A stretch of 64,000 nt of DNA from a virus (IMGVR_UViG_3300042448_001253:32001-96000); one strand, 5' to 3'; shown: positions 7,101 to 45,540, numbered from the stretch's first letter. Notes: generated by a model not told the origin, from the letters alone. Translations and numbers: made by a program.

Positions 7101-7483
7101 GAGTCTCCAACGGCAGAGCTCTCAAGAAAAGTTCCATAGAGAGTTATGTCACCAAAAGTACGGCTAACAGAAGGGGAGCTAATATTCCAGTAACCAATAG
7201 TTCCAGAGTATGCGTTAATATCTCCACGCACAAACACGTCAGAAAACTCTGCTACTCCAGAACCACTAATACGCCACCCAGCGTAGTTAGGGATGTAGTT
7301 ACTACTGTAGATACCATTGGATGCTAGAGAAAGCTCATCGGCAAGTGCCCCTCCACCCACCGAACCCTCTGTAGGACCGAGCCCTGTGGTATCTGCTCTA
7401 GACTTTAGTACCGAAACTTCGTCATTTATGGATGATAAATATGCACTAAAACTTTTAGTTCTAGTTATTCTTCTACTTGCCAA
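4157..7483 (-). CDS. Tail fibre/spike with C-terminal intramolecular chaperone (peptidase S74-like)
   Basis: 1108 aa, beta-rich and Ser/Thr/Gly-rich. C-terminal TSSARYKQDI...ILKLQPKTF...GFIAEDV...YAEMVSALVSAIK plus a coiled coil. Confidence 0.85.
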   Translation of the reverse strand: MASRRITRTKSFSAYLSSINDEVSVLKSRADTTGLGPTEGSVGGGALADELSLASNGIYSSNYIPNYAGWRISGSGVAEFSDVFVRGDINAYSGTIGYWNISSPSVSRTFGDITLYGTFLESSAVGDSDVNKTDGTYVGLFKSYELEPNLIVSKYRRDNIATITTPGHAFLLGDRVYVSIDNDVDGFNAISSPVSIIQVAGDTISYINEGIDFTDLDSSGDPVDNTAIGTVTLYNPDIAGLYLRDYSKREFDYGYFSNQGLSYVSAEDVNLIENPSFEYLDSVGDLNSANDSWGTVGSGLTLSTVSILSDYVSGSSYGGALTWNSTSSGYLSAKIDYTAGNAYKLFEIERPLYFNLTVFPYYNPSSITITSMVSYSVSTNWFFEVTTSTSHGLVAGDSVFFDFNSSYGGTSYLPHTLPNGSSGYTYVVAASPAPTTTKFYIDVDGTFPAPGIIIPRVNIPGKIGFSDIYKVYEAALDLSAIRLRYPNGQTTNLYDVLSPLTQSQWDAGTNKYLISYANDYYIQYSETDIDVSPMPKTGSLAVDGASIAAAYQAADPTSFATGEDIYVDLPGWMLKHDGNVTVSGTKLANTGYIVDNVHLSTAPNFFYGSELATNRWFATTEDVPSYNPAQASIEGTKTWMNIDLTTQAATLDYFNQIGFRNNTFTKTMISRPSIGTQDDAPLYQPFIDSEYETTTFSGGNYQYNDITGYSNLGSSLKLITGGRSSGFELSSDFKSILDGDIIGRQAAVISGSYGDYTQVGQTVPRSTIRIGSDRLTWGWEVENLSDPGKELIVIDKGEVLFGSDPSLTSYIPLVVNSTITSLDTVTTLSSGTGFHADNGGDIQSTGGDIYTTAGNIYTTIGNVYTSNGRVTANTVRITSTTAYNLAEGAHPFQVGPTNNANLRIDDNGIQTVNDGAIASLNINTFGGNVVIGTSTSVVSALGSLEVGGGYATSGATISTTGLLSTNSNIVVDGNGTFGNLAGAGTRNVNSTSTGILTNATSSARYKQDIVNVDYIYEDILKLQPKTFKLKSEVEELENPITYAGFIAEDVDEIDSLKVFVGYARTPDGDLIPDSLYYAEMVSALVSAIKHQDTLITSLKNRLDILEGN

Positions 7484-10400
7484 TTGTGTCTACCTGCCAA
7501 TCAGGAACTAGGGTTAAATCAATCATCTCCGGGAATGCCGGATTATTAGGCACAGACACTTTAATTGCATCAATTTTACGAACAATAACATCTTTTCTAG
7601 GCTCTAGCGGACTATTCAAACGATTTTTTATAAAGTCATCGTTAATAATGATAGAGCACCAATCGCCGGGGTCATAGCTACCAACCGCAGGAGTTAGAGA
7701 ACCATTTACGCTAATAGTTATATCCCCCTGAGGAGGCTTGGATTCACTTAGGAATCTGACAGCAGATGTGTGGAAATCTGTCTCCATATCGTAATTACCG
7801 TAATCATCAATGTTTTTATTGTCTGGAGCATTTGATTGCGGGTAACTTACCGTTTCTTTTTTATCTAGTAGAGGCCACCCAGCAGCCAATAGGGTCGTAT
7901 CAGACGCAGCAGAATAAGGAACTTCCGCCACCCCACTACCATTGCTGCTAGACGAGACAAACATACGAGTAGCTGAATCCTGAGCACTTTCGGTCATGTT
8001 GACGTTAGTGATATTTCCCGGATACTCAAAGATAACTTTGTCTGCACCAAAAGCAGCAGGCGGTGCCCACTGACCTACAGCAAGTTTATTACCTGGCAGA
8101 CTATTCAAGTACTGAGTCATAGAGTCTGGATAAATCGGGATAAGAACAAATGTTCTAGTAAAGTTTTTATTGCCTTGAGCATCATAGGTTAAATTGCAAT
8201 CAACTCTATATTCAAATCCTCCGATACCGCTACTGTATTTGTCCAGAATACTTGCAACCGTATTTAATGAACTTCCCGTAATTGGTGTGTTTTGAATAGC
8301 ATTTCCGCTGTAGTCATTGGTGGAATATGAAAGTCCAATATCAGCATTGAGCGGGAATTCACCAAAAGTCCTAGAAAAAATTGTCGGAATTCGTTGAATA
8401 AAAGCCCCCGGAACTGCATAGCCGTCGTATGAAGGACCGTTAAAATTAACATAACTAGTTACTGAAATAGTACCGTTGTTTCTAGTTTTTTTAACATCGG
8501 CAGTTCCTGCAGTCACTGAAAAACTTATACTAGACACTCCAGTATTAGTTATAGTCCTAGAACCATTTACCGAAGCAGCTATACTAGATACAGTAATTAC
8601 ATCGCCTCCAACCAGATTGTGGCTAGAATTACCAGCAAAAAACAAAGTAGCAACGTCATCGCTTATGGAGTAATACGAAATCTTAACAGGTGCCCTCATA
8701 ACATAACTAAAAGTGTCCTCAGTTACAGCTGTAATCTCTCTAGCAAGACCTCCCTGCTCAAATGCCGCTGAATACTTACCAAAAATATTTACTTCAGCAA
8801 AATCACCAACTTTAAAGTCATGCCCCTCAGAGGTAAAGATAGCCACTGTAGGGGTAGAGCTCGACCTAAATACGCCACTTATTTCCTGAACCTGAGCATT
8901 AGTTTTAGTAAAATCTAAACGTGCAGTTCCGCTGGTAGACTGCCATTTTTCTATTTTTGCTTTAGATAATGAAGGATATTTTGCATCAGTATAGCTAGCA
9001 TCAAAGCCCGGGTAAGGAAGATTATTTAGCACTAAAGTACTCTTGCCATCATCTGTTTTTAAGTTATTTACAACGGTCACCCTGGTAGATGTTTTTCCAT
9101 CAGAATAATTAGAGTTGGATGCAGTTTTTTTGACAGTATGCGCTCCATTAAGTTTAGAGAACTTTAGAACTTTTTTAGTAGTCGTAGAGGTGTAATTCTG
9201 CAAACCTAAAACGTTAATTTTAGAACCAACACTAATATTTGATTTATTATATGAAGGAACTTTTGCCGTACCGGTGGTCGACAGAGTGTACTCTGTCCCA
9301 ATTGCATCATCGCTAGCAACGCCGTTGCCGCTTTTTTCTGATAAGAAGTCGTACTTTACAGAGAAAGTAGAACCGCTAACATAAGCAACAGTACCGGTGC
9401 GGTTGAACTGCTCAAAGTTTTTATAGGTATTAGTTACCTTATTTTTATTATAAACAATCGAAGAAAGACCATTCCCATTATAAGAGTCAAAATTATAATT
9501 AGCAGGAAAAGCAGTAAACGATATAGTTACAGTTTGACTATCAACGACCTTTGCTACATTAATTTCACGATTATTAAAAGGTAAAAATAAATTAAGATAA
9601 GACTGTTTAGAGTATACGGACCACCCCGCTTTTTTGATAGGGTGCTTAGTCAGAAATCCGGATATTTTTATAGTATTTTTATTGGTAGGTTTTTTGGAAT
9701 CGTTAAATCCGCTACCCACTGGAAGGCCATGACCAGTAGCAAATTTTATAGTCATAGTTTTTCCCGGCTGCTTTTGTATGCCAGCAGTCGCAGCAAAAAG
9801 CGAACCAGCAAAATAAGAAAAACTTTCAATGCTAGGAGTGGCAGTAGTAGTGCTAGTAGTAATGCTTCCGGAGTCCTGCAGTCCGGAGATAGTTACTTTA
9901 TCGCCAACTACAAAAGTTGTAGCCGAAGAAGTGGTGTAGGTTACATAGTTCTCGTTTGCTGCACCTTTATGCCATTTAGGTTTTATTTTGGTAATTGTAT
10001 TTGTTTTAGCAGCAACAGCAGTCCCCTTTTCTACAATGTCAAAAGCTACAACTTTTTGCCCGTCAGTGTCCGTATCAAAAACAACACCTCTAATCTCCAT
10101 AGAGTCTGTTTGAGGGATAGAGTTGCTTATTTTATAGCTAATCGTGTCCCTAGTAGTTTGAGTTATTTTTACAGATTTTCTGTCATTTTCTAAATCTGAA
10201 TTTTTAGTTCCATGCATGTCTACAAATATGTAATCACCGACTGCAAGTCCGTGGTCAATCGAGTATAGAGTTACCTGACCACCCTCATTGACGTTTTTTC
10301 CGTCAGCATGGCTGAAAGCTATGGACACGGGCTGAGGGGCACCGACAACTGACTTTATTCTAGTAACTATTCCAGATTTAGAGACAAAACCTTCGGTATC

Positions 10401-12587
10401 TTTTTTCGGGGGAATAGGGTCCTTTGTTGTAGAGCTAGAGTTTTTTGGGACAATGTATGTAAAAGTATTTATGTCTTGAACTGTAACGACTTTTACATAG
10501 TCAGCTCCATAGTACTTTTGGTCCTCTTCCTTTGAATATTTAATTGAAACAAAATCCCCGGGATTTAAGTTATGTCTAGTAGTAGTGCTTACTATCATCT
10601 TGTTAGTAGACGCTCCTGCATCAGCTTTATAGCTGATTTTTACAATATTTGATACGGCATCAGGTTCTTTTAGCGTAACACTATACTTAATCTCGCTATA
10701 TGCAGGCTCGTATGATAGCCAAGATTTACCATTTACGGATGCAATACCGCCGGAAGTGACGCCTCTATAACTAGTAGGCTCAAAAAACATTCTAAAATAA
10801 ATGTAGTATCTGCCGCCGTGAGACGCAGATGGCTTTGAATCCTCTTCAATTCTAAAATAACCATTGAGAGCACTAATATCGTCAGCAGTAGGAGTAGCCG
10901 TGCTTGTGGTTAGTCCCTCAACTAAAACCTCATCGCCGGCTTTAAACTTAGGGTCTGTTGTATCAAAATAAAGATAGACAAGGGTGTCAGTCTGGTAACT
11001 TGTTGCATCTTCGATGTCCGGGTCAACGACTACTTCATAGTATCTTATCGTGTATGAGTCTCCCGGTGCTACATCGTACACTTCAGCGTAGCCATCAAAA
11101 ATAGGCTCAGACCACTTGCTCGCATAGCCGTCAACGTTTACTATTTTTACCTGTTCACCGATATTGTATCCGTGATTTGCGCCAGCAGGAAATACCTTAA
11201 GTAAGGTTTTTTCTGCAGCATTTTTAACAATGTTTTTTTCTGGATTTTCAACGGACTGCTTTTTTCTATTGTATTTTGCATCCGAATGTCCTGGAACAGG
11301 GTCGGTAAAAAATATACTTCTAGATGTTATATCTGTAATTTGAACAGTATTGTTATACTTTTCATAATCAAAGCTATTTACATCTTTATTATTTTCAGTT
11401 TGAAGAGCAGGTTTTTTTCCTTCAATCGCTACAATTACTTTATCTCCAACGGAGAACCTGTGAGCAGAGTTCAATGTAAGCTCTACTAGACCAGCGGTCC
11501 TGGTTAAGTGAGTTATGTACTCCTCATTGTACTTGGTAATCTGCCTATACTGAACCGGAGTTTGTTGAATAGATACCGAAGTTTCCGCAATATTGGTGAG
11601 CGGTATAGGGCTTAATTTATTGAAATTACTAATCGGATTACTGATTACGTATGTAATTTTAGTTGGGCTAGGTATCTCAGAAACAAGATATCTACCATTC
11701 AGTAAATCGTCTACGTTCGAAATTTCTATTCTTTGGCCAGCAACCAATCCGTGAGGTAGGTCAGTGGTTAAAGTTGCAACTCCATTATCTTCATCTGTAG
11801 TTACTAATTCTTTTTTAGTAACCGTTATAGGAACTCTAATTCCTGGAGTAATTTCTTCGTTAGGGAACTGTACATACTCAAAATCATTCAAAGTGTTGTC
11901 AATTAAGTTTCGTAAAAACTCATAGGTATCGACCTTCATCGTTACAGTTACATTAGGGTAGCTGCCAGTAGGCGGAATAGGGAGTTTTTTAATATCAACA
12001 TAAAAGGAGTTCTGACCCGGGTCCGCAGGAGCACCGTCATCATCAATATTTAAAACTCTATAATTACCAGTGTATTTTCTCAAACTACTAGTCAAGAACG
12101 AGATACGAACACTTTCTCCGTCAGCTCCTCCCCTAGGAGCTTCTAGTAAAGTCCTACTAGTAGACTGTACGAGAACCTTACCGTTCTTTTCAATTTTAAT
12201 AACCTTAGCTGTAAAAGTCTGAGAATAAGCTTTCCAAATCATCCTGTGGTTTAGGTAGCTAGTAAACTCGCTTGCAGAGAAGCTAAGGCTACGGCCTACC
12301 ATGTCATAGGTTCTGCCCCAAATAATCCCACCCCAGACACAAACTCCGTCTCTAACTGCGTAGATAGCAGTTTTACCGGGCATGGTTGCGTTATATAAAT
12401 CAAGAGCATTTGTCTGATTAGTAATGGTAATTTTTCCATCAAAGCTGCCAGGGCTCTTTAGGCTACGCTCGTAGTTTACGTCTTCTAAAGATAGTTCACC
12501 AATAATAGTATTAGTGACGAGGTCAGCTGTATAGTAGCGGTAGCGAGGGGCAGTGGTACTACCTACCGGTATAACAATATCTGGCAT
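7473..12587 (-). CDS. Baseplate hub/Tal-like minor tail protein with a large internal insertion of repeated beta modules
   Basis: 1704 aa. N-terminal YRYYTADLVT...VWGGIIW and C-terminal ...YDPGDWC..I..D..RI hub-like halves flank many H(G/N)L..GD.V.I repeats. Confidence 0.8.
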   Translation of the reverse strand: MPDIVIPVGSTTAPRYRYYTADLVTNTIIGELSLEDVNYERSLKSPGSFDGKITITNQTNALDLYNATMPGKTAIYAVRDGVCVWGGIIWGRTYDMVGRSLSFSASEFTSYLNHRMIWKAYSQTFTAKVIKIEKNGKVLVQSTSRTLLEAPRGGADGESVRISFLTSSLRKYTGNYRVLNIDDDGAPADPGQNSFYVDIKKLPIPPTGSYPNVTVTMKVDTYEFLRNLIDNTLNDFEYVQFPNEEITPGIRVPITVTKKELVTTDEDNGVATLTTDLPHGLVAGQRIEISNVDDLLNGRYLVSEIPSPTKITYVISNPISNFNKLSPIPLTNIAETSVSIQQTPVQYRQITKYNEEYITHLTRTAGLVELTLNSAHRFSVGDKVIVAIEGKKPALQTENNKDVNSFDYEKYNNTVQITDITSRSIFFTDPVPGHSDAKYNRKKQSVENPEKNIVKNAAEKTLLKVFPAGANHGYNIGEQVKIVNVDGYASKWSEPIFDGYAEVYDVAPGDSYTIRYYEVVVDPDIEDATSYQTDTLVYLYFDTTDPKFKAGDEVLVEGLTTSTATPTADDISALNGYFRIEEDSKPSASHGGRYYIYFRMFFEPTSYRGVTSGGIASVNGKSWLSYEPAYSEIKYSVTLKEPDAVSNIVKISYKADAGASTNKMIVSTTTRHNLNPGDFVSIKYSKEEDQKYYGADYVKVVTVQDINTFTYIVPKNSSSTTKDPIPPKKDTEGFVSKSGIVTRIKSVVGAPQPVSIAFSHADGKNVNEGGQVTLYSIDHGLAVGDYIFVDMHGTKNSDLENDRKSVKITQTTRDTISYKISNSIPQTDSMEIRGVVFDTDTDGQKVVAFDIVEKGTAVAAKTNTITKIKPKWHKGAANENYVTYTTSSATTFVVGDKVTISGLQDSGSITTSTTTATPSIESFSYFAGSLFAATAGIQKQPGKTMTIKFATGHGLPVGSGFNDSKKPTNKNTIKISGFLTKHPIKKAGWSVYSKQSYLNLFLPFNNREINVAKVVDSQTVTISFTAFPANYNFDSYNGNGLSSIVYNKNKVTNTYKNFEQFNRTGTVAYVSGSTFSVKYDFLSEKSGNGVASDDAIGTEYTLSTTGTAKVPSYNKSNISVGSKINVLGLQNYTSTTTKKVLKFSKLNGAHTVKKTASNSNYSDGKTSTRVTVVNNLKTDDGKSTLVLNNLPYPGFDASYTDAKYPSLSKAKIEKWQSTSGTARLDFTKTNAQVQEISGVFRSSSTPTVAIFTSEGHDFKVGDFAEVNIFGKYSAAFEQGGLAREITAVTEDTFSYVMRAPVKISYYSISDDVATLFFAGNSSHNLVGGDVITVSSIAASVNGSRTITNTGVSSISFSVTAGTADVKKTRNNGTISVTSYVNFNGPSYDGYAVPGAFIQRIPTIFSRTFGEFPLNADIGLSYSTNDYSGNAIQNTPITGSSLNTVASILDKYSSGIGGFEYRVDCNLTYDAQGNKNFTRTFVLIPIYPDSMTQYLNSLPGNKLAVGQWAPPAAFGADKVIFEYPGNITNVNMTESAQDSATRMFVSSSSNGSGVAEVPYSAASDTTLLAAGWPLLDKKETVSYPQSNAPDNKNIDDYGNYDMETDFHTSAVRFLSESKPPQGDITISVNGSLTPAVGSYDPGDWCSIIINDDFIKNRLNSPLEPRKDVIVRKIDAIKVSVPNNPAFPEMIDLTLVPDWQVDTIGK

Positions 12588-18260: not shown

Positions 18261-18599
18261 CTAATTAATTGGAGCATCTAGGATGTCACCAAACGGAGTG
18301 CTTGAGAACTCATCCATGTTGGTTGCTGGAACAAATGGTTTTGTCTCAGCATTGGTAGGGTCAAATGGAGCAAGGTCATCAAAGTCGAAATCAGAATTAG
18401 CTGCAGCAGTCCTATTCTTAATCTCATCAGACGCATACCTGTAGTTAATCCCATAAAGTTGCTTGAATATGGTGATACGTCTAGCGTCAGTCATTTGAGC
18501 CTGCTCTACGCTAGCGTAATTCAGGTCTTCTTCATAGAAGTAGTGAATGACATCTAGCATGTCAGAGAGTTCCATCTCTTCAAGTCTCAATCCATTCAC
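18261..18599 (-). CDS. Tail assembly chaperone, frameshifted C-terminal (T) part
   Basis: The -1 frame from C CCA AAT is open (…SAARGLTLWAVDLWPYVNGKALVNGLRL…) and runs into this ORF. Confidence 0.85.
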   Translation of the reverse strand: MNGLRLEEMELSDMLDVIHYFYEEDLNYASVEQAQMTDARRITIFKQLYGINYRYASDEIKNRTAAANSDFDFDDLAPFDPTNAETKPFVPATNMDEFSSTPFGDILDAPIN

Positions 18600-18622: not shown

Positions 18623-18671
18623 GCCAGAGGTCAACCGCCCAGAGTGTTAGGCCTCTGGCTGCTGATTTGGG
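18623..18671 (-). promoter_or_regulatory. Programmed -1 ribosomal frameshift signal of the tail assembly chaperone
   Basis: Slippery C CCA AAT (18671-18665), 5-nt spacer, 8-bp stem GCCAGAGG/CCTCTGGC (18659-18652 pairing with 18630-18623). Confidence 0.85.
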
Positions 18672-18988
18672 CGATTACCGTATTCTTCAATAATCCAACC
18701 GATGATTTCACCAAGTGTTTCAACAGAAACAATCTTGTCTGGGTCATCAAGTAGAGCATCAAAACGCTTGTATGTCTCAGCAGACATAACCTTTTCAAAG
18801 AAAACTCGGGTAATTTTTGCGGAGTCTCCTGCGTCATCTGAGTTTGCTAGTTCAACGAACTGTAGTAGGGTCTTACCCTGCATTCTTGGGTGGCACACAA
18901 ATTCTTCACCGTGAAGTGCGAACTTGATTGGTTCCTTGCTATCTGAACCGTCTTCTTTACCTTTGCCAAAATCTTTAAATCTTGCCAT
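18647..18988 (-). CDS. Tail assembly chaperone (G)
   Basis: 113 aa, between tail completion genes and tape measure, ends in a slippery site. Confidence 0.85.
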   Translation of the reverse strand: MARFKDFGKGKEDGSDSKEPIKFALHGEEFVCHPRMQGKTLLQFVELANSDDAGDSAKITRVFFEKVMSAETYKRFDALLDDPDKIVSVETLGEIIGWIIEEYGNRPNQQPEA

Positions 18989-32444: not shown

Positions 32445-32678
32445 TTACTGCTCGGGCTCAGTTTGTATTTCTTTCAGTATTTCCTCGAAACGGGCATTTT
32501 CTTCCGCATCAATCTTGCGAAGCCTGCCCATCCATTCGGTCATAGCATAGGGATACTGCATAACAAACTCGACTAGCGACTTATTATCCATCTCAGAGAA
32601 CTTCAAAAATTGAGTTTTCGGGCCGTCATCTGTGTCGATGTACAGCACTATGCCGTCTGGTCTGCTGATATCATCCAT
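32445..32678 (-). CDS. Hypothetical protein
   Basis: 77 aa, same strand as the operon, RBS-like AGGA. Confidence 0.55.
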   Translation of the reverse strand: MDDISRPDGIVLYIDTDDGPKTQFLKFSEMDNKSLVEFVMQYPYAMTEWMGRLRKIDAEENARFEEILKEIQTEPEQ

Positions 32679-32717
32679 GTATAAATCCTATCACTAATTT
32701 CAGTAGTTTGCTATAGA

Positions 32718-35700
32718 CTAGTCGTCCGAGTCGAAATCAAAGTCCGAAAGGTCTATGTCCAAAGCTTCGTTTTTGGTAGGGCTTGAAGACGGAATTTCAT
32801 CGGCATCAGGAGCTGGCTTTGCAGGGTCCCAACCCCACTCTTGGATAGAATCTGCACTTGTGAATAGGTCAGAAGCTTTTACCTTTTTGGATAAGACTTT
32901 TCCACCAGGGACGTTGCTGTCAATGTGAGTTTGAGCATATTTACTAGACAGTGATACCCAGTCGCCAGGCTGGATATCGTCTACGTCGCTCGGAGCTCCT
33001 CTGTAGATGGTTACTTCAGCGTCAGGGTTCCCCTTGATTGAGTTGATAACATCAAACGCTTCTTTATCAGCATCTGGATATCCGCTACTGTAGTTTCTTT
33101 GTTTTGCTGGGTCAAGGATGTCTTTAGGGAATACTTCATCAATCTTGTCTAGTGAAGCGGCTGCACCTTCTTCTTGTGCGTCCTCTCTGCTAGCTGGGCG
33201 ATGGGACATGCGGTAGTTGTCCATAACATCGTCTAAGTCTGATTTTTCAGGAGTTTCTTCTGCATCTGGAGTTGGTTTGGCTTCTTTGTTAGAGGATAGG
33301 GATTCTATATTCGACGCTGGTCTAACATCCTCTATTAATTCAGCATCAATATAGTACTTATAATTATCGTTTACATAGGTAGCAAAGCCCGGCTTTAAGT
33401 TGCTTCCGAAGGGGACTCTACGAATAGCTTTAATTTTTAACCTAGCACCGGAAGGCAGTATAGTTTCTGCCTCTGCCTCATCAAACCAGTATTCATCAAG
33501 ACCACGGGGAACTTCAAATGCAGTAGAGCCCTTAGGTATAGATATTGACCAAAAAGACCCACCAAATTGTCCGGAGTCGCTATTAAACGAGGTTTCGCTA
33601 TATGTATCGTCCGAGTATCTGTAAAAACTACTTCCGGCGAAATTTTTTGCCGCTATCTCCGGTTCTGAACTAGTAGATGTGTAAGAAACATTAGAAACTA
33701 CGCTACCAGGTTCTAAGTTTTCCAACATCTCGTAGTACTTAAGTTTTTTCTCGGTATTCTCCGGAGGGGTCATTCCTCTATATACAACCCCATCCTTAGC
33801 GTATTTATGTTTTTTAAGAACTTCATTTAATTTACTAATCTCGTTATCTAAAAATTCAGATTTAGGCTCCATGTTATTTATTAGATATTCATTAATCTTT
33901 TTATAGCCCTCGCCGGTATAATATTTTATAGCTGCTTTTTCTTCAGGAGTAAACTCTTTTAAATCGACGTCCGGAGCACTTCTAGGGAGCTTATAGGTAT
34001 CAAAAATAAATTTAGATAAGGACTTATCAAAAATATCGGACTTGCCTTTAATTCCAATACCGTCTACGATTTCCCAGTTGCCGGCATTAATTTCTTGTAA
34101 AGCTTTAGCTGCCTCTCCTCTAGTAGAAGCACTACTAATTGCATCCTTAGCCTTCTGAGATATCCACGGAATTTTAGACTCAGACATTCTTTGAAGTGCT
34201 TTTTGTTGGTTTTCAGTTATAGGATTGTTAGGGTCAACAGCAGCCTTGAACTCAGCCATGCGTTCTTCATAACGCTTTTGCATTGCAGGGAAATCTAGAA
34301 GACTTAGGTCTTGATTATCCTCGTTTGCAGCACGGTCAATAATCTTTGAGACAAGGTTGTAGGAGTCTTCTGCGTCGCCATCAGCTGAGTGCCAGTTAGC
34401 AGGTTCGAAACCTAGGAAGTTAGCAACAGGACCGAGGCTAGATGTAGCCTTGATTTCTCCAGTCTTGCGGTCAGGAGCTTTTGGACCGTCGATGCCCTTC
34501 TCTGCGTCATACTTAGGGAGAAGTGAGGCAAGGTCTTTAGAGTCAATGGTTCCAGCAATATCTAGGTCTATGCCTGACTTGTCGGCCATACGCTTTAGAA
34601 TCTCAATGTCAAATGGAACGTTCTGACCACCTAGAAGAGCGTTAGGTCCGATAAACTCGATGAAGTCTTTTAGAGCCTGCTCTTGGCTACTTTGCCTTGA
34701 TAGCCATTCGGAATCTACAAGCTCCTGCTTAAATTCATCATAGTCATCTAAAATTCTGTTACCTTCGGAATCTAAAACATCACGTTTTAAATTATTAGAC
34801 GACCATTCAGAAAGCCTGCTCTCTGGGTTGATGTAGACATTAAAACGCTTTACAATTTTGCCGTCTTTAACTTGAACTGCACCAAGCTGAACTGGGTCGT
34901 TAGTGATATCTTGACCGTCGTAATCAGCAATACCAGTTGTCTCAAAGTCGAAGTAAGTTACTGTCTGACCCTTTAGGCGTTCTTGAACTTCTTTCCAATT
35001 CTTAGCACCCTTCATAATGTCTTGGAACTTACCGGTAAAGGCACCTGGAGTAGGTAGGCGAGTACCGCTAGCGTCCATAGTTGCTGACTGGAAGTCAATG
35101 CCTAGGTTGTCTAGAGAGCTAGGTATAGTTTGAGCTTCGGCGTCGGGGGCTGGCTTAGATTGCTCTGTTTGAGGAGCGTCGTCTAGGACAACTTCGGCCT
35201 CAACGTAAATCACATCAGATTTCTCTATGCTATTAATTCTTAGTTTAGAGCCTCTAGGAAGAAGAAACTCTGCCTCATCAAAAGTACTAGGAGTGTACTT
35301 ATAAACTCTAATCATTTTAGCCCCAGCAGGCACCGTAATAGTTAGATAGGCCGGTCTGCCTTCTTTAGTAGCAACCGCAAAATTATTTGCTGTAGTCAAC
35401 GAACTAGTAGTAGACATATAGCCAGTCTCTTCATAAATATCGCCTGGGGATAGCCTTGAAAAAATAGATGCTGCCTTACCGCTTATACCTCTGTTTAAGA
35501 ATTTAGGAACAGTTGTAGGCTCTTGTTTTTCAAAAGCTGAATCAATATTTGCAATGTCGGATTTAGCTTTTTTAATTCCAGGTACGCTTACATCAGGTTT
35601 ACGTAAAACCTCATTTATACTAATGTACCCTTTGCCCTTATATGAAAGCAAAGCTTCTTTTTCTTCGTCTGTTAGCTTATTTTCTGGCTTATCAAAAAGC

Positions 35701-37583
35701 TCGTCGGTGCCGTTCATAACAGCAGGAGTAGCCTCAACTTCGGTTAGTCCGTTTTCTTTGAGATAGTTCTCTATATAGTCTAAACCACGTAAAGCATTTC
35801 TTGTATCTTCTAAATACCCTAAAAGCTCTGCCTGAGCCTTCGGAGATTGCTCGAGCTCGTCCTGTAAATCTCTTTCAATGCTTGAGATATTGTCTTCTTT
35901 AATTTTACGTAAGCGAGCAATTCTTTCAAAGGTATAGGTAGATGGTTCATCAACAAAACCAATAGTACCTAGACCCTCATACCAAGACTTCTTCTTCTTC
36001 TTTTCGGGAATGGCGTCAGCATCGGGGGTCGGCTTGAGCCCCTCTGCCTGAGGAGCATCCGGAGATGACTGAGCGGCTGATTGCTTAGAGACGGACTGGA
36101 CTAATCCGCTATTAGAGAGAATGTTTTTAATGCGGTCAGATGCTTCGCCTGTGGACACAAACCTAGCGACGGACTCTGCAAAATTCTCGTTGTAGTTGGA
36201 ATCTCCGTATTCTCCTTTTACCCCGTTGATTTCGTTTCTATAGCTCTTTGACGAGTTGCTATTTATATGGTCATTCATATTTTGAACTGCATACATGACT
36301 TGATGGCCGAGCTCATGCTTAAGTGTTTCGGCTAGTTTGTCTAAGGAATTGTTAATACTTCTCCAGTATCTTCCAAGATTCCATATCCGATACTCTTTGT
36401 CATCAAATTTTCTAATATTAGCAAGATTTAGGTAAAGTCTTCCGTCAACAGAAGTCATACCATTATTTTTATCTATGACCTCCGTAATATCATCAGTACC
36501 AATTTTTTTCTTGTCCGCTTTTGATATAGGTTGGTGGTTTCCAATAATTATTTTAAGACCACCGGTTCTGTTATATGTACCTAATAAACTGTCAGTCCTC
36601 ACCCCTTGCAAATTAGATAGGTTTATAACATCATTGAAGCTATTAAAGGCATTTAGAACAGTTCGCACTTCTTCGGGGGTAGCAATCAAGGATGTATCCT
36701 TTGAGTCCAGCTCAAACATTAAATCGTGTTTATTTAGAGCAGGGTCTGAGTGCTTTACAATAAAGTGTCTTGGTCTGGAGTCTAGAGCATATGCTTTGTA
36801 AGCCGCTCTTCTCTCCATACGGCCAGGAATTTTAGATATCTCATCTAAAGCATTCTCGTAGTCATCAAGAACAGGCTCCCATCCCTCAGGTAGGTCTAGT
36901 TCCGAGGCAAGTTTTCTAACAGCTGCTTGGTGCTGCCTCATCCTGGCTGGTGTGCGGAAGAAATCTTCCCCTATATTGCCTAATCCGAATTTTTTATCTA
37001 TTGCTTTTCGGTAACTTCGCACGAGCGAGGCACTTAATGCAATGCCAATCTCCGGGTCGCTTCGCCCTAGAAATTGTACGTCAACCGGAACAATCTTGGA
37101 GTTTACTTTTGCAATTTCAGCTTTAGAAAGTAGCGGCTCATTTTTTAGTCTATTTTTGAAATAATCTGTTAAGAAACTTGCATATTTTTTAGCAAGGAAT
37201 TCGTGGAAGTTTAGCTGGTTTTTCAGCGCATCCATGTATCGTTCTTTAGCTGATGCTATTGCAAGAGGGTTTTCAGGGTCAGCTTCTAACGCATCAATTA
37301 ATTTTTCTCTAGCAAGTAGTGATGCTAACTCTAGGTTAGAAACATGAACAGCTTCAAAGTCAGTAATAGTTGCTAAAAGCTGGTCATCGATGTCTGAGCT
37401 AAGTTGCTTAGCCCCAACTCTCTCATTGTCATCTTTAGATGCTTCAGAGAGCGTATTATCTAACTCTTGACCAGGGTCTAGGGTAGGCGGAGCACCAGTT
37501 ACGTCGTCTTCATCCGATTCGTCGTCAAAATCTACCCAAGACAGGTCGATATCTAACGGCTCATTTTTAAGAGAGTTCGGCAA
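32718..37583 (-). CDS. Multi-effector protein: zincin metallopeptidase, two VIP2/Alt-type ADP-ribosyltransferase domains, DEDDh 3'-5' exonuclease and a further ART-like domain; probably the C-terminal half of a frameshift fusion
   Basis: Zincin: HELGH…ENFAE. ART1: NRGI…YMSTTS…DEAEFLL. Nuclease: DFETTG…VPFD…HSADGD. ART2: YRGM…YTSTSS…EAEAETIL. C-terminal domain: IYRGAP…GDWVSL…EWGWD. The TTG start lacks a clear RBS and the frame stays open upstream. Confidence 0.85.
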   Translation of the reverse strand: MPNSLKNEPLDIDLSWVDFDDESDEDDVTGAPPTLDPGQELDNTLSEASKDDNERVGAKQLSSDIDDQLLATITDFEAVHVSNLELASLLAREKLIDALEADPENPLAIASAKERYMDALKNQLNFHEFLAKKYASFLTDYFKNRLKNEPLLSKAEIAKVNSKIVPVDVQFLGRSDPEIGIALSASLVRSYRKAIDKKFGLGNIGEDFFRTPARMRQHQAAVRKLASELDLPEGWEPVLDDYENALDEISKIPGRMERRAAYKAYALDSRPRHFIVKHSDPALNKHDLMFELDSKDTSLIATPEEVRTVLNAFNSFNDVINLSNLQGVRTDSLLGTYNRTGGLKIIIGNHQPISKADKKKIGTDDITEVIDKNNGMTSVDGRLYLNLANIRKFDDKEYRIWNLGRYWRSINNSLDKLAETLKHELGHQVMYAVQNMNDHINSNSSKSYRNEINGVKGEYGDSNYNENFAESVARFVSTGEASDRIKNILSNSGLVQSVSKQSAAQSSPDAPQAEGLKPTPDADAIPEKKKKKSWYEGLGTIGFVDEPSTYTFERIARLRKIKEDNISSIERDLQDELEQSPKAQAELLGYLEDTRNALRGLDYIENYLKENGLTEVEATPAVMNGTDELFDKPENKLTDEEKEALLSYKGKGYISINEVLRKPDVSVPGIKKAKSDIANIDSAFEKQEPTTVPKFLNRGISGKAASIFSRLSPGDIYEETGYMSTTSSLTTANNFAVATKEGRPAYLTITVPAGAKMIRVYKYTPSTFDEAEFLLPRGSKLRINSIEKSDVIYVEAEVVLDDAPQTEQSKPAPDAEAQTIPSSLDNLGIDFQSATMDASGTRLPTPGAFTGKFQDIMKGAKNWKEVQERLKGQTVTYFDFETTGIADYDGQDITNDPVQLGAVQVKDGKIVKRFNVYINPESRLSEWSSNNLKRDVLDSEGNRILDDYDEFKQELVDSEWLSRQSSQEQALKDFIEFIGPNALLGGQNVPFDIEILKRMADKSGIDLDIAGTIDSKDLASLLPKYDAEKGIDGPKAPDRKTGEIKATSSLGPVANFLGFEPANWHSADGDAEDSYNLVSKIIDRAANEDNQDLSLLDFPAMQKRYEERMAEFKAAVDPNNPITENQQKALQRMSESKIPWISQKAKDAISSASTRGEAAKALQEINAGNWEIVDGIGIKGKSDIFDKSLSKFIFDTYKLPRSAPDVDLKEFTPEEKAAIKYYTGEGYKKINEYLINNMEPKSEFLDNEISKLNEVLKKHKYAKDGVVYRGMTPPENTEKKLKYYEMLENLEPGSVVSNVSYTSTSSEPEIAAKNFAGSSFYRYSDDTYSETSFNSDSGQFGGSFWSISIPKGSTAFEVPRGLDEYWFDEAEAETILPSGARLKIKAIRRVPFGSNLKPGFATYVNDNYKYYIDAELIEDVRPASNIESLSSNKEAKPTPDAEETPEKSDLDDVMDNYRMSHRPASREDAQEEGAAASLDKIDEVFPKDILDPAKQRNYSSGYPDADKEAFDVINSIKGNPDAEVTIYRGAPSDVDDIQPGDWVSLSSKYAQTHIDSNVPGGKVLSKKVKASDLFTSADSIQEWGWDPAKPAPDADEIPSSSPTKNEALDIDLSDFDFDSDD

Positions 37584-37599
37584 CTCATCCGCGTCAGGT

Positions 37600-37640
37600 G
37601 CAGGTTTCCCGGACGGGGAGTTACCTGCTACGCTTTTGGG
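37600..37640 (-). promoter_or_regulatory. Predicted programmed -1 frameshift signal joining ORF 37628-41986 to ORF 32718-37583
   Basis: Slippery C CCA AAA (37640-37634), 5-nt spacer, hairpin GCAGGT-AAC-TCCC-CGTCC-GGGA-A-ACCTGC (37628-37600). The -1 frame is open into the downstream ORF. Confidence 0.75.
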
Positions 37641-40600
37641 GAGTCAGGGCCAATCAGTTTGTCGGGCTTGTAACCAATCCTCTTAATATCGCCATTAGCA
37701 TCTTTATACATAACGGCAACAACTGGCTCATCTTCAGCTGTAGTTATCTTGACTTTTACTACTGAACCTAGAGCATTACCCTTGGTATCATAGATAGTGT
37801 CTCCAGCCACTAGCTGAGTGGCCTGTTTAGTTAGCCCGTTAGGGACTACTTCAACAGTCTCTGAGCTATCGTCCTGAGGGATGCCATCGGAGCCAAGAAG
37901 TCTAATTCTTCTTTTCTCTGTACGACGAGACAAAGCTCGTTGACGTCTGTCGGCAAATTCTTGGCCACCACGCTTAAAGGCTAGAGGTACGTTTCTATCC
38001 CAGCCCGTATATTCACTTACTGGAGTGCTAGGGTCTACTATCCTCATTCTAGTCGCCGCTAGGTCAGAGTTCTCTGTACGTAGTTTTCCAGTTTTAGGGT
38101 CCAGGAACTGCATTCTAACGAAGTCGTCGTTTCCTCTAGGGCCGCTCTGTCTTCTCAGGCCTACAATGATACCGACAACCTTCTCGCCTGTGTTGGTGGT
38201 CCATTCAGCCTTGTCTCCACGCTTTGCAACTACGATACCGCTACCAGAAACGTGAGGGAATCTCATCTCGTTTTCTACTGACCACTTCTTGTCAGCATTT
38301 TTCACGTAGTTAGTAACAATAGCGGATAGCTTCTGAAGAGCTTTAGTACGCTGAGTACCGGTAATACCGCTCCTGTCCAAATCTTCTTTAAGCATTTGAC
38401 GAAGGAACTTCATTACTATCTTTTTAGCTTCAGCACTGTCTTCGGGTAGTAGGTTCATAAGTTCTTGGAACCTATCTCTACCATCCGTGCGGTTAGAGCT
38501 CTTCATAGCGTCTATCATTGACTGAACTTTACTACGCTCTATGTTACCGACAACTATATCTGTAGTAGTGTTTTGACGTTCAGATTCACCGTCTAGGCTA
38601 ATAGCTATCTTCTCTTCTAGAGTTAGCATACGCATATCCTGTAGAGTGTGAGCAGCGTTCATCTCGGTTAAATCGCCGTTATACTTATTCTTTAGTTCGT
38701 CCAAGATAGTAGCTTTTTGCTCTTTATTCGTCATCTTGTTGATGTCGTCTAAGGTTCTGCCCGTCTTGTTATACTTTCCACGCCAGTATGTCATCTTGCG
38801 TTTCCAGTCGCCACCATAGTTGAAGTAGGCCTTGTCTCCAGTAAACTTATCTCCAGGATTTACCTTAGCTCCGCCTCCGGAAGCAGGTCTTAGAGTTCCA
38901 GCAAAGAACTGAGCCATCTTCTCGATACCATTGGTCTTACCATGAATAGCACTGTAAGTATCTCTGTAGTCGTGAGAGATAAAGTCTTTTACCTCTCCTG
39001 TTGCTAAGTCAGTAAATCTGTTTACAACTAAGAACTGGTTTCCAATAGTACGCTTGACGATAATCTCGTGTCTAGCCTTGCCACCGTCGATTGTTTGACG
39101 GTGAGTTATAAATCCTCCGGTAAAATCGTCGTCAGGGTCTGCTATGTAGTGACCATCTGGGTAGTCTTCTTCAAGCTGAGACTGGATTCTATCTCCATTG
39201 GCTTCGGTGCCTCTAGCTTTATTTCCACTGCCTTTAGTTTCTTGCATTTCAGCTTCGCTACGAATAGCAGGTTTCATGTCTCTATCGTGAACTTCAGGGA
39301 GAGGTTTATCTTCTCTTACAGGGTTCTTAGCTAGGTAGTAGTCATTGACTTCATCGATAAGGTCTTGGATTTCGCCCTCATCCTGGAAGTCGCCATCCTG
39401 CATAGCATTGTACGCATCCATTAGACGTTCACGCAAATCTTCGTCTTCAATCGGGTCGCCTGAGTCCATAGCATCTAGGTCTTCTAGAATATCCTTTTGC
39501 TCTTCAGAGATAGGGTTTCCAGTAGCATCTGCGTCCGGTCTAGGAGTTACAGGGGTAGTGTTAACGTCAGAGCCTTCTAGGAATCTCTTGCTCTTAGCTT
39601 CGCCGTTGCTATCAGTGTAGTTAACAGTAACCTTACCGTTGTCACTAGAAACACTGTCTACAGTTCCGGAGGTTCCGTTAGCGTTGTAGATTGTGTCGCC
39701 AGGAACTAGAGACTCTGCCTTCTTAGTTGGAGGGGTTAAGTCGTCTGGTCCATCAGGTCCCTGACCTCCAGGTGCAACCTGAGGGCCATCAGGAGGTCCA
39801 GGAGGGCCTGCAGGGGCTCCGGCTGGTTCTGCCTGTGGGGTAGGTACAACAACTGGTTCTGCAATTTCAGCAGGCTGAGTAGGGGCAACTGGTTCTTTAG
39901 GAGCAATTGCTTTTTCAGGCTTCGGAACCTTGCTGTATTCCTTATCTTCCATAAACTTAGTTGTAGAGACTTTTCCGTTAGAGTCTACAACTTCGGCCTT
40001 AGTGTACATTCTAAAACGATTGTCAACGCTTTTTTCTAGAATCTTTCTAACAGTTCCAATCTCGACGCCATCGGCATTCCAGACTGTGTCTCCAACTTCA
40101 ATGTTGTCATGGTCAGCTGGCTTTGCGTTCTTCGGAACAGTAGCTTCTTTGGGGACAATAGTATCTGGGGTAGGGATAGATACTGCAGGACCTGCGGTAG
40201 GCCCGTCTTCGATAGATTCGTCTCCAGGCTCGCCATGAACGACTCTGCGGACAGAGCTGCCTGGGGATGAGTTAAACTCTCTAAAAACACCATCTCTATC
40301 TTGACCGCTGACTGTGGCAACGCCCTTATCGTTAAACTCGATGTCGTCTACCCTCATAAGTTCATCGGTGTCAGGGTTGGTTATAAAATCTCCAGGTTCG
40401 ATTTGTGATACCGGAACAGGGCCCTTTTCAACAATAGGGCGGTCAAAATCTGAAGTATCTACATCAGGACCTAAGTCCTCTTCGATTGGGTCTAGAGTGA
40501 CGTCACCTAATAGGTCTTCTTCGTCATCACCATCAGCTATGTCAGTTTGCACAGCATCTAGGTCTGGAGCTGGCTTTCCAGCCATAGCATCTTTTACAAG

Positions 40601-41986
40601 TCTGTCTGCTCTTCTTTTGTAGACGTCATCATTTGAAGTATTGATTCCGGCTTTATATAGAGCTTCCTCTAAAACTCCACGGGCAGAGATTAGTGTTTCT
40701 CTGTTAGAGTTTCCGTCGCTGTAGCTTAGAGGGCTACCGTCAGGGTTAGTGCCTGTTCTAAGTGGAAGAGCGTCCGCAATATTCTGTAGTTTCTCTGAAC
40801 CAGAAGTGCTTGGGTCATTAATAGCGTCTAATGCGGACTTGTAAAAGTCTGGGTTTTTAACAGCAGCTTCATTAAGAATAGTCTTCATCGCATCTAGACC
40901 CTCAGGTGAGGACAGAGCGTCTACATCTCCACTTGCAAGAGCAGGGAATCTTTGTCTCCAAGAATCTCTAGCTGCGGCTGCCTCATCGCCCATAACATCT
41001 AACGCGTCAGCGTCTGGGGTTGGCTTTGCAGCTTTTCTAGAAATAGGCTCTACACCAAAGAATTTGTCCATGACGTCATCTACGCTGTTGTAGCCTGGTC
41101 CGCTATCAAGCTTTTCAAACATTCCGCGTGAGTTTCGTCTATCTGCAGCGGTGTCGTACTCGTAGTCAGAGTTAGCACCGTCAGCGTAAAGTTCCCACTT
41201 TCCAGCTCTATTCTGCTTTAGGCGATAATTGTTTGAGCCATCTTTGTAATCCCAGATGCCACTTCCAGGGGAAGTTTCTTTTAGGCCTTTATATTTATTT
41301 TGAGGTCGGTCTGTAGCAAGCTGGAACATGCCGCCTTCATCCCTCGTGACGCCATTCTCATCCATATATTCTTGAACGCTCTTACGGCCTTCAGCAAGGT
41401 CAGCTTCAGTTACGTCGTCTAGCTGTGCAACTGCCTTACCTTCAGCTGACTCTTTGTAAGCTGAAAGCTGTCTACCTTCTGGAGAGTTGATTCCATCATT
41501 GACGAGGCGGAGGTCGTCTTCGGTGATTGGGCTAGGGTCTAGGTCTTCGATGTTTGGAAGGTCAGGTGAGGATTCGATTGAGTTTAGAGAGTCTCCACCA
41601 GCATCCGGGTCGATTCCCTTAGAACGTAGATACTCGTCTGGAAGAGTTCCACCAATAAGGTCAACGTGCTTGGTCAGCAGTTCGTACATGCCATCAGGGA
41701 TACCCTTGTCCGCCATGCCCTGAATAAGCATACGTACTGTATCTGAGCTTCCGGCAGAACCTAGTGCTCGTCCAATTACTGAAACAACCTGACCAGAGAC
41801 TTTTAGGGCAGAGCGAATCTCTGCACCCATCTCAATCCACTGACCAGCACCTCTTCTACGCTTTGGAATACGTGGCTGGATACGCCAGAATCCCTTGTTA
41901 GCACCATCATTGAAGCCGATGCCAGCAGTGAGCGGGTTGATGTTCTCGTCGTCGCCGTTGAACAAGTTTTCTAGATAACCAGACAT
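37628..41986 (-). CDS. Large acidic head-cluster protein with about five small beta-barrel repeats
   Basis: 1452 aa. Repeats such as SLVPGDTIY…GTV..V and QLVAGDTIY…GSV.KV; Pro-rich linkers; RBS AGAAGGA. Confidence 0.75.
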   Translation of the reverse strand: MSGYLENLFNGDDENINPLTAGIGFNDGANKGFWRIQPRIPKRRRGAGQWIEMGAEIRSALKVSGQVVSVIGRALGSAGSSDTVRMLIQGMADKGIPDGMYELLTKHVDLIGGTLPDEYLRSKGIDPDAGGDSLNSIESSPDLPNIEDLDPSPITEDDLRLVNDGINSPEGRQLSAYKESAEGKAVAQLDDVTEADLAEGRKSVQEYMDENGVTRDEGGMFQLATDRPQNKYKGLKETSPGSGIWDYKDGSNNYRLKQNRAGKWELYADGANSDYEYDTAADRRNSRGMFEKLDSGPGYNSVDDVMDKFFGVEPISRKAAKPTPDADALDVMGDEAAAARDSWRQRFPALASGDVDALSSPEGLDAMKTILNEAAVKNPDFYKSALDAINDPSTSGSEKLQNIADALPLRTGTNPDGSPLSYSDGNSNRETLISARGVLEEALYKAGINTSNDDVYKRRADRLVKDAMAGKPAPDLDAVQTDIADGDDEEDLLGDVTLDPIEEDLGPDVDTSDFDRPIVEKGPVPVSQIEPGDFITNPDTDELMRVDDIEFNDKGVATVSGQDRDGVFREFNSSPGSSVRRVVHGEPGDESIEDGPTAGPAVSIPTPDTIVPKEATVPKNAKPADHDNIEVGDTVWNADGVEIGTVRKILEKSVDNRFRMYTKAEVVDSNGKVSTTKFMEDKEYSKVPKPEKAIAPKEPVAPTQPAEIAEPVVVPTPQAEPAGAPAGPPGPPDGPQVAPGGQGPDGPDDLTPPTKKAESLVPGDTIYNANGTSGTVDSVSSDNGKVTVNYTDSNGEAKSKRFLEGSDVNTTPVTPRPDADATGNPISEEQKDILEDLDAMDSGDPIEDEDLRERLMDAYNAMQDGDFQDEGEIQDLIDEVNDYYLAKNPVREDKPLPEVHDRDMKPAIRSEAEMQETKGSGNKARGTEANGDRIQSQLEEDYPDGHYIADPDDDFTGGFITHRQTIDGGKARHEIIVKRTIGNQFLVVNRFTDLATGEVKDFISHDYRDTYSAIHGKTNGIEKMAQFFAGTLRPASGGGAKVNPGDKFTGDKAYFNYGGDWKRKMTYWRGKYNKTGRTLDDINKMTNKEQKATILDELKNKYNGDLTEMNAAHTLQDMRMLTLEEKIAISLDGESERQNTTTDIVVGNIERSKVQSMIDAMKSSNRTDGRDRFQELMNLLPEDSAEAKKIVMKFLRQMLKEDLDRSGITGTQRTKALQKLSAIVTNYVKNADKKWSVENEMRFPHVSGSGIVVAKRGDKAEWTTNTGEKVVGIIVGLRRQSGPRGNDDFVRMQFLDPKTGKLRTENSDLAATRMRIVDPSTPVSEYTGWDRNVPLAFKRGGQEFADRRQRALSRRTEKRRIRLLGSDGIPQDDSSETVEVVPNGLTKQATQLVAGDTIYDTKGNALGSVVKVKITTAEDEPVVAVMYKDANGDIKRIGYKPDKLIGPDSPKA

Positions 41987-45051: not shown

Positions 45052-45540
45052 TTACATGCCCAACTTAACGCTTGCACCTAGCTGCCAGTTCCACTTCTGG
45101 TGCATGTCAATGCGTCCAGCTAGTGTGTCGGCGATGCCTTGCTCGTTGCAGTTGTTTGCAACATTGAAAGCTTTCTTTAGGCACTTTAGAATAGATGCGT
45201 TTACATCGTATAGAGATAGAAGCATGGCAGCAGAGTCAGAAGAAATTCTGGCTGGCTCACGAACATCTGAAATCTCAACAAAGTCTGTTAGTAGGTACGG
45301 AGCGTCGTAGCCTAGCTTGCGAATGCTTTCGCCTAGCGGGTCAATAGCACTTTCGTAGTCTTCGTAAATCTCTCCAAAGAAATCGTGCAACTGAGAAAAC
45401 TCGATGCCCTTTACATTCCAGTGGTAGCCCTGAGCAATGAACTTAGCAAGTACTGTGCTGCTTAGGCAGATAGCAAGATGCTTAGCTAAGTCGGTATTAC
45501 CTTTGTAATCATCGTTTAGTTCTAGGTCTAGATTATTCAT
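45052..45540 (-). CDS. dps: Dps/ferritin-like DNA protection protein
   Basis: AQGYHWNVKGIEFSQLHDFFGEIYED…D.LGESIRKLG…HQKWNWQL, the Dps signature. Confidence 0.9.
   Translation of the reverse strand: MNNLDLELNDDYKGNTDLAKHLAICLSSTVLAKFIAQGYHWNVKGIEFSQLHDFFGEIYEDYESAIDPLGESIRKLGYDAPYLLTDFVEISDVREPARISSDSAAMLLSLYDVNASILKCLKKAFNVANNCNEQGIADTLAGRIDMHQKWNWQLGASVKLGM

Follow-up and report, generated by a model that had tools for sequence, protein, structure and literature searches.

Two large open reading frames (ORFs) that follow one another in the genome of an uncultured phage raise the question of whether they are two genes or a single gene read in two frames. They are found in a 64,000-nucleotide (nt) virus stretch (IMGVR_UViG_3300042448_001253:32001-96000), which we refer to as the window and in which all coordinates are given; the genes considered here are on its minus strand. 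The first, ORF A, encodes a protein that we call the carrier, and the second, ORF B, has been called from a TTG codon. The original prediction was that a programmed -1 frameshift at the end of ORF A joins both into a giant multi-effector virion protein. The comparisons reported here strongly support the frameshift, based on (i) 26 junctions analyzed at the DNA level, (ii) a family of 63 split and 25 fused proteins, (iii) a coding signature that switches frame, and (iv) the lack of a conserved start codon. Comparative sequence data thus indicate that ORF A and ORF B are very probably one recoded gene, joined by a conserved programmed -1 frameshift.

Inspection of the DNA bore out the anatomy that had been proposed. 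ORF A ends in ...GGC CCT GAC TCC CCA AAA GCG TAG, the heptamer C_CCA_AAA is in the X_XXY_YYZ register, and the -1 frame is open from this site and joins ORF B in frame (Table 1). Past the slip site, this frame reads LPK-SVAGNSPSGKPAPDADE-L... and remains open for 1638 codons, from 37634 to 32718. When recomputed, the length of the predicted slip product was again 1451 + 1638 = 3089 amino acids (aa). Since the TGA that closes the -1 frame is only two codons 5' of the slip site, the overlap between the two frames is minimal. The TTG at 37583 is 45 nt beyond the ORF A stop and 17 codons beyond the slip site and, as had been noted, has no clear ribosome-binding site; unlike most other genes here, it is not preceded by a Shine-Dalgarno sequence of the AAGGA/AGGAG type. 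The statement that the bridge between the slip site and this TTG encodes the KP(A/T)PDA(D/E) linker found within both ORFs was also confirmed.

To assess the conservation of this arrangement, we compiled relatives at the protein and DNA levels. When the C-terminal part of ORF A was used in a word-indexed search, 11 homologues of 27-86% identity were retrieved, 10 of which end in ...PK[AG] right at the stop; the exception, P0013, is the most distant one and an in-frame fused form. The closest homologues, P0003 and P0004, share 85-86% identity over the searched C-terminal region, and both end in …DAPKA. In the DNA of five lineages (L001-L011), obtained from JGI metagenomes and IMG/VR, we found in each case xxC CCA AAA NNN stop, with the -1 frame closed 2-5 codons ahead of the ORF A stop and open for 449-1605 codons where the contig was long enough. 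A HMMER scan of 1.8 billion representatives with a profile of the last 560 residues of the carrier retrieved 87 proteins, which together with the first set resulted in a census of 95 family members (clusters at 50% identity). Of these, 63 are split and terminate 0-1 residue past PK (50 members) or KK (13 members), 25 are in-frame fusions that contain HExxH 290-440 residues further on, and 7 are partial or unclear. In the fused protein P0016, for example, ...GDDSPKASASQEE... (DSPKASASQEE) is followed by an acidic stretch and then by HELGH...EHFAESF. PK/KK is invariant in the split forms and often replaced (GPN, GPR) at the junction of fused forms. Invariance in the split state together with relaxation in the fused state would be expected from a constraint exerted on the slip-site nucleotides. 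The fusions also imply that both halves form one polypeptide in a quarter of the family.

After two further scans of viral contigs, based on the KK and 'RGPK' subgroups, the distinct junctions available at the DNA level numbered 26. Nineteen contain C_CCA_AAA and seven A_AAA_AAA, all in the X_XXY_YYZ register, and the 0-frame stop is located 0-1 codon after the heptamer in every one of them. The stop that closes the -1 frame upstream is found 1-51 codons before the heptamer in the relatives (two in the window). Where complete, the -1 ORF comprises 263-1638 codons, the window having the longest extension among the junctions examined, and two -1 ORFs leave their contig sooner; HExxH is present in 22 of the 26, mostly ~335-440 residues in. 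Three loci, L020, L021, and L042, are fused in frame at the DNA level. An alignment of homologous loci had been suggested as a check, either for the slippery site and hairpin or for fused versions, and it provided both the heptamer at each junction and the 25 fusions. The arrangement is kept family-wide at 24-86% protein identity. In the A_AAA_AAA clade (junctions of L012-L019 and L023), the site reads ccA AAA AAA GCN TAG and is accompanied by a CCCC...GGGG hairpin; in L017 and L023, the -1 ORF has just 263 codons and lacks HExxH. A search for fused forms among proteins of >2541 aa returned none, a result of little weight, and fused forms were found among shorter proteins. Among INPHARED phages, the DNA of 36600-38600 had no match, tblastn with ORF A, P0075, or the fused P0023 likewise retrieved nothing, and the C-terminal domain of the carrier was absent from the INPHARED cultured phages by tblastn. 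A scan of GTDB genome contigs and a single-protein scan of viral contigs retrieved no relative.

We then inspected where translation of the -1 frame may begin. Across the relatives, the first ATG, GTG, or TTG in this frame occurs between codon 17 and codon 130 after the slip, and no start codon is conserved. In L002 and L005, it is codon 87 and codon 64, respectively, both downstream of the invariant DFDD acidic motif. In L003, which is the nearest among the relatives with DNA, the codon aligned to the TTG of the window is TTA (Leu); the TTG itself is part of the 3' arm of a hairpin common to both. A comparison of codon differences between L005 and L011 (~80% nucleotide identity) gave, for the last 200 carrier codons, a synonymous-to-nonsynonymous ratio of 58:28 in frame 0; over the 63 codons past the stop, it was 16:8 in frame -1 versus 4:20 and 0:25 in the other frames. 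These counts indicate that, at the junction, the coding signature passes from frame 0 into frame -1 and that the -1 ORF of the relatives is under purifying selection.

The region 3' of the heptamer was analyzed for stimulatory structures. In the window, the 74 nt that follow the heptamer fold with -24.8 kcal/mol (z = -3.1; 0/200 shuffles as stable), and the corresponding z-scores were -3.8 in L003, -2.2 in L004, and -3.0 in L005. A G+C-rich stem-loop begins 4 to 8 nt past the heptamer at 22 of the 26 junctions; the stem begins at +3 in three others and at +14 in one. The 29-nt hairpin initially proposed (37628-37600) exists; comparison with L003, however, favours a longer stem-loop (37625-37579), so that the shorter one is an alternative fold of the same stretch. 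The longer form has 14 shared pairs, among them two with compensatory changes and one with a G·U/A-U switch, and this consensus, derived from two sequences, is suggestive. The outer stem of the 'RGPK' clade, GGGCUG/CAGCCC, never varies, and the stems within it are of variable sequence and length. A conserved stop just past the slip site may add to the pause of the ribosome. One such stop-codon pause effect, in a plant virus, is covered in the Atkins 2016 review. In E. coli, V_VV.A_AA.R heptamers rank with the most efficient motifs for -1 frameshifting (Sharma et al. 2014, PMC4066793).

A number of observations weigh against a frameshifted single gene. The CCCAAAA heptamer is not enriched in the window (5 copies versus ~10 expected); as the heptamer alone is within chance, its significance derives from its position and conservation. 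The downstream structure is weak in the L001/L002 lineage (z = -0.6 to -0.8), and some A_AAA_AAA relatives have modest z-scores. The fused product is predicted from comparative data, and its probable location in the virion from the position of the gene. Finally, a TTG is present 17 codons past the slip in the window, so some independent initiation is possible. This codon is central to an explanation by two separate genes, in which ORF A stops at TAG and ORF B is made from TTG 37583, possibly by termination-reinitiation, and the heptamer and hairpin are incidental or form a terminator or attenuator. Gene callers indeed split the pair in the window and in 63 family clusters, and the TTG 45 nt past the stop is real. 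Nevertheless, it is replaced by TTA in the L003 lineage, its Shine-Dalgarno sequence is poor, and the first start codon of L002 and L005 comes too late to include the invariant DFDD motif. Furthermore, the frame -1 coding signature starts directly after the stop, the linker motif is encoded upstream of the TTG, PK/KK is invariant at every split-form end, and 25 in-frame fusions occur naturally. We therefore consider two separate genes improbable.

The same fusion could also arise from transcriptional slippage, with RNA polymerase inserting an extra A into the A-run. This would yield the identical protein (...PK-S...), and in the clade with seven consecutive A's (CCAAAAAAAGC), a length at which slippage is plausible, this is a real alternative. 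The window and 18 other junctions, however, have only four A's, fewer than productive slippage is known to require. Moreover, both motifs are canonical ribosomal heptamers that always occur in the X_XXY_YYZ register, which polymerase slippage would not need, and the conserved stem-loop at 4-8 nt fits ribosomal stimulation; overall, we rate slippage by the polymerase as quite improbable. If the CCCCAAAA run contained an indel from sequencing or assembly, the true gene would be a continuous 3089-codon ORF, which would be in line with the error-prone nature of homopolymer runs and with the existence of fused relatives. Yet the same break at the same codon recurs in 63 protein clusters and in 26 distinct junctions, which stem from many metagenomes assembled independently, always with a stop 0-1 codon past the heptamer and another one that closes the -1 frame upstream, which makes such an error extremely improbable. 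The chance is similarly negligible that a non-programmed frameshift mutation was fixed, leaving ORF B as a remnant in decay or with expression at error level. Nothing specific favours this explanation, which is formally possible for a single genome, and it is opposed by a 1638-codon open frame with intact catalytic motifs, by the purifying selection detected in the -1 frame of relatives, and by the family-wide conservation of the arrangement.

Table 1. Positions of the features discussed in the text
Feature	Position	Strand	Remarks
ORF A, 0-frame product ("carrier")	41986..37628	minus	1452 aa
TGA closing the -1 frame	37646-37644	minus	Two codons before the slip site
Slippery heptamer C_CCA_AAA (tcC CCA AAA)	37640-37634	minus	X_XXY_YYZ register
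0-frame stop TAG	37628..37630	minus	One codon past the heptamer
Bridging segment SVAGNSPSGKPAPDADE	37584..37634	minus	17 codons in the -1 frame; carries a KPAPDAD linker copy; upstream of any start codon
Extended stem-loop	37579..37625	minus	47-nt window/L003 consensus; starts 8 nt past the heptamer; 3' arm holds the called TTG
Bridge linker KPAPDAD	37607-37587	minus	
ORF B as called	32718..37583	minus	TTG start 37583; 1621 aa; read as the -1 extension of ORF A
Acidic motif LDIDLSWVDFDDESDEDD	37500..37556	minus	DFDD core invariant in six lineages
Zincin-like metallopeptidase module (predicted)	36099..36983	minus	HELGH at 36317-36303; HExxH and downstream E..AE invariant
KPTPDAD linker between zincin module and ART1	36015..36035	minus	
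ADP-ribosyltransferase domain 1 (ART1)	35220..35702	minus	Pfam ADPrib_exo_Tox; STT and ExE motifs
DnaQ/RNase T-like 3'-5' exonuclease (DEDD-type)	34221..34964	minus	Pfam RNase_T; PHROG exonuclease subunit
ADP-ribosyltransferase domain 2 (ART2), Alt-like	33624..34304	minus	PHROG 802/26651
C-terminal domain, PHROG 2579 ('ParB C-terminal domain')	32808..33239	minus	PHROG match
C-terminal tail KPAPDADEIPSSSPTKNEALDIDLSDFDFDSDD	32721..32819	minus	Second copy of post-slip linker and acidic motif
Further KP[AT]PDA[DE] linkers	35156-35136, 33278-33258, 41026-41006; variant 40576-40556	minus	
Tail assembly chaperone pair	18988..18647 and 18599..18261	minus	Heptamer cgC CCA AAT at 18671-18665

The multi-effector content claimed for the extension was verified by Pfam and PHROG matches, which identified two ADP-ribosyltransferase (ART) domains, an exonuclease, and a ParB-C-like domain. 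ORF B matched PF03496 (ADPrib_exo_Tox) in two stretches (E = 2.2e-43), and the ART motifs are YMSTTSS with DEAEFLLP in one case and SYTSTSS in the other, the ExE of the second domain having been identified by eye. Judged by profile and STS/ExE motifs, both domains are R-S-E ADP-ribosyltransferases of the Alt/VIP2/exoenzyme clade. The zincin module had no Pfam match at E <= 0.01, including the MPTase-PolyVal model. Its AlphaFold model is of intermediate quality, the mean predicted local distance difference test (pLDDT) score being 60, with 80-95 in the core. A Foldseek search with it against the Protein Data Bank (PDB) produced no significant match. In a full VIA-align scan, zincins were the top matches for residues 218-512, namely, the protease domain of anthrax lethal factor (Z 9.8; 200 residues aligned at a root mean square deviation of 4.9), followed by PPEP-3 (Z 8.3) and lugdulysin (Z 8.2). 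We read the HExxH module as a probable zincin-like metallopeptidase.

In all lineages, the constant part of the extension amounts to ~450-530 aa and consists of the acidic motif followed by the domain with HExxH and the downstream E..AE. The -1 ORF of the short lineages stops after the zincin module, and that of the window and L003 continues; the L003 extension also has an exonuclease domain. The cargo of ARTs and exonuclease is thus lineage-specific, and every lineage has the protease-led head. A six-frame translation of the window contains six copies of the KP[AT]PDA[DE] linker, exclusively in the frames of ORF A, ORF B, and the bridge; in the extension, such linkers separate the added domains from one another. 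L003 has its own version, N-I-x-P-D-A-E-G (IEPDAEG in the bridge), in five copies, bridge included. A unit composed of a P-D-A-[DE] linker and an NE(A/P)LDIDLS..DFDFD acidic motif is found after the slip site and again at the extreme C terminus of ORF B, and in the L003 extension it is also present internally, at residue ~1029 (L003 about 16050-16140). This recurring unit may serve as the header of a module, as a peptide for docking, or as a joint at which recombination swaps cargo.

For ORF A, we found no Pfam or PHROG family. The conserved C-terminal ~560 aa were modelled at a pLDDT of 74.5 and form small beta-barrel repeats and a helical domain; Foldseek retrieved no significant match to this model in the PDB, and a search of the ESM Atlas gave no usable match. 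Matches in BFVD had TM-scores of ~0.1 and were disregarded. The possibility that ORF A is a MuF-like minor head protein is unsupported, as there is no PF04233 match and no clear Foldseek match for the C-terminal part; a remote relationship to MuF may exist. The N-terminal ~140 aa (41567-41986, minus strand; …AGIGFNDGANKGFWRIQPR…WIEMGAE…) are common to giant post-portal proteins of Microbacterium phages, and the INPHARED match of P0026 is limited to this segment, likewise in Microbacterium phages. In A3Wally gene 85 (L046 9001-9387), the carrier-type N terminus is part of a 1900-aa hypothetical protein encoded three genes past the portal in ~190-kb Microbacterium phages. The shared segment may be a head-incorporation or portal-proximal module.

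The gene pair is part of a head-morphogenesis block, between the portal and prohead-protease genes. On the coding strand, the order is a 462-aa ORF at the terminase position (48021-49409), the portal (45544-47334), a Dps/ferritin-like protein, a 614-aa protein, a 372-aa protein, ORF A, and ORF B. Next come proteins of 119 aa, 1098 aa (with LysM), and 1015 aa, the last of which includes the head-maturation protease, and then the major head and major tail proteins and the two tail chaperones. The Dps/ferritin-like gene (45052-45540, minus strand; Pfam Ferritin, E = 4e-12) is directly 3' of the portal gene. The 614-aa protein (43199-45043, minus strand) has weak PHROG matches, including a ParB-like stretch at residues 345-394, and may be another packaged protein; neither it nor the 372-aa protein matched a Pfam family, Phage_Mu_F (PF04233) included. 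The LysM-domain protein (28695-31991, minus strand) is encoded in the head module immediately upstream of the protease gene, the 1015-aa multidomain protein (25581-28628, minus strand) contains the head-maturation protease core at residues ~477-652, and the major head protein (23539-25455) has an N-terminal extension of ~140 residues.

In the mechanism that we propose for the recoded gene, ribosomes that translate ORF A would reach the heptamer and be slowed both by the TAG close to it and by a stem-loop that begins 5-8 nt after the heptamer. Some of them would slip back by one base, the P-site tRNA-Pro moving from CCA to CCC and the A-site tRNA-Lys from AAA to AAA, and translate another 1638 codons in the -1 frame. 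This would result in two products, the 1452-aa protein and a 3089-aa protein in which the same first 1451 residues are extended by the acidic motif, the zincin-like metallopeptidase, two R-S-E ARTs, the DEDD exonuclease, and the ParB-C-like domain. We infer that only part of the ribosomes shift. Plain carrier, presumably a scaffold, would then outnumber the enzyme-bearing carrier at a ratio set by the frameshift, as in Gag/Gag-Pol or lambda gpG/gpGT; the 25 fully fused relatives indicate that a 1:1 arrangement of carrier and extension is also viable. From where the gene is located, and by analogy with polyvalent proteins and T4 Alt (PMC5512222), we consider it probable that both forms reside inside the head and accompany the DNA on delivery. 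The KP(A/T)PDA(D/E) linkers may be cleavage sites at which the built-in zincin or the prohead protease frees the modules. We tentatively propose, as an idea somewhat more apt to fail than to hold, that a large family of uncultured tailed phages follows a strategy like that of Gag/Gag-Pol, in which the frameshift at the end of a head-internal carrier would set a fixed stoichiometry for an array of swappable enzymes, headed by a protease, that is loaded into the capsid; cleavage at lineage-specific P-D-A-[DE] linkers, performed by the zincin of the array or by the prohead protease, would then free the enzymes to enter the host together with the DNA.

This arrangement has similarities to and differences from several known systems. 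(i) In lambda gpG/gpGT (Levin 1993; Xu, Hendrix, Duda 2004; PMC5009743), a -1 slip on an X_XXY_YYZ site near the end of the upstream ORF likewise results in a short and a C-terminally extended product with a common N-terminal part and a ratio set by translation. Its extension, however, is ~100-150 aa, and the products are assembly chaperones absent from virions, whereas here 1638 aa of predicted enzymes are encoded in the head module. (ii) The frameshift site of phage A2 reportedly is C_CCA_AAA followed by a stem-loop. Frameshifts in capsid genes (Lactobacillus A2 major head, T3/T7 10A/10B, and Listeria A118/A500; PMC5009743) also represent recoding in the head module that gives two forms of a probable virion protein, but they add short structural or Ig-like domains to a shell protein and not an array of enzymatic effectors to a non-shell protein. 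(iii) The retroviral Gag/Gag-Pol pair shares the abundant structural protein and the rarer structural-enzyme fusion from one mRNA, with a protease-first extension and short recurrent linkers that resemble processing sites. This is an analogy without homology; the present system belongs to a tailed double-stranded DNA phage, its cleavage and packaging are predictions, and 25 relatives are simply fused. (iv) Polyvalent proteins (Iyer, Burroughs, Anand, de Souza, Aravind 2017, PMC5512222) are also giant and multidomain, combine a zincin-like peptidase with ART, nuclease, and ParB-type domains in portal-terminase phages, and have been predicted to be packaged, delivered with the DNA, and processed by their own peptidase. 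The feature that characterizes them, several unrelated effector domains in one polypeptide, is present here, flanked by portal, protease, and capsid genes; frameshifting, in contrast, is mentioned 0 times in that article, and Pfam MPTase-PolyVal has no match here. (v) MuF-like/VIP2 ART fusions of Microbacterium phages (PMC7302621) and T4 Alt have in common an R-S-E ART on or with a head-module protein encoded near the portal that is predicted or known to be injected. They differ in being in-frame fusions or single-domain proteins, with no conserved recoding site described, and in the lack of a PF04233 match in ORF A.

The article on Microbacterium phages reports in-frame MuF-VIP2 fusions and giant, probably processed virion proteins (PMC7302621), and in PRFect, MuF-like and VIP2 genes are among the predicted joins that were treated as false positives (PMC10885494). 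The phage frameshifts listed in reviews are those of tail chaperones, A2, T3/T7, Listeria capsid and tail proteins, and a few others (PMC5009743). Our literature searches on frameshifting in connection with polyvalent, MuF/ART, or ejection proteins retrieved no account of such an arrangement. The new element is the application of a known type of recoding, the -1 frameshift, to a polyvalent head-module effector protein. The tail assembly chaperone is the main broadly conserved frameshift site of tailed phages, others being isolated capsid or tail extensions. In the family described here, with at least 63 clusters at 50% identity and 26 DNA-checked junctions, the frameshift would tie a head-module protein to a protease-led effector array and, if true, represent a second widespread and functionally distinct class of programmed frameshift in tailed phages. 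If confirmed, standard gene calling systematically mis-annotates such phages, with ORF B predicted from spurious starts, and a translational mechanism exists to dose injected anti-host enzymes. The natural series of split and fused forms (63 to 25) could then inform on why stoichiometry matters in polyvalent cargo. The many natural variants of heptamer and hairpin can be used in recoding studies.

The tail chaperone genes of the same phage had been cited as a frameshift of the same design. This was found to apply to the heptamer C CCA AAT and to the -1 frame, which continues in frame into the GTG-started second ORF, in the canonical G/GT arrangement. The stem CCAGAGG...CCUCUGG, however, was not outstanding in minimum free energy folding (z = +0.3). 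Another CCCAAAA in the X_XXY_YYZ register is present at 10443-10449 (minus strand), within a 1704-aa gene (12587..7473), and is probably due to chance, as no minus-strand ORF of at least 100 aa overlaps it. The 360-nt gap between ORF B and the gene of the 119-aa protein is mostly occupied by an uncalled ORF of ~77 codons (MDDISRPDGIVLYIDTDDGPK...) at ~32450-32680 on the minus strand.

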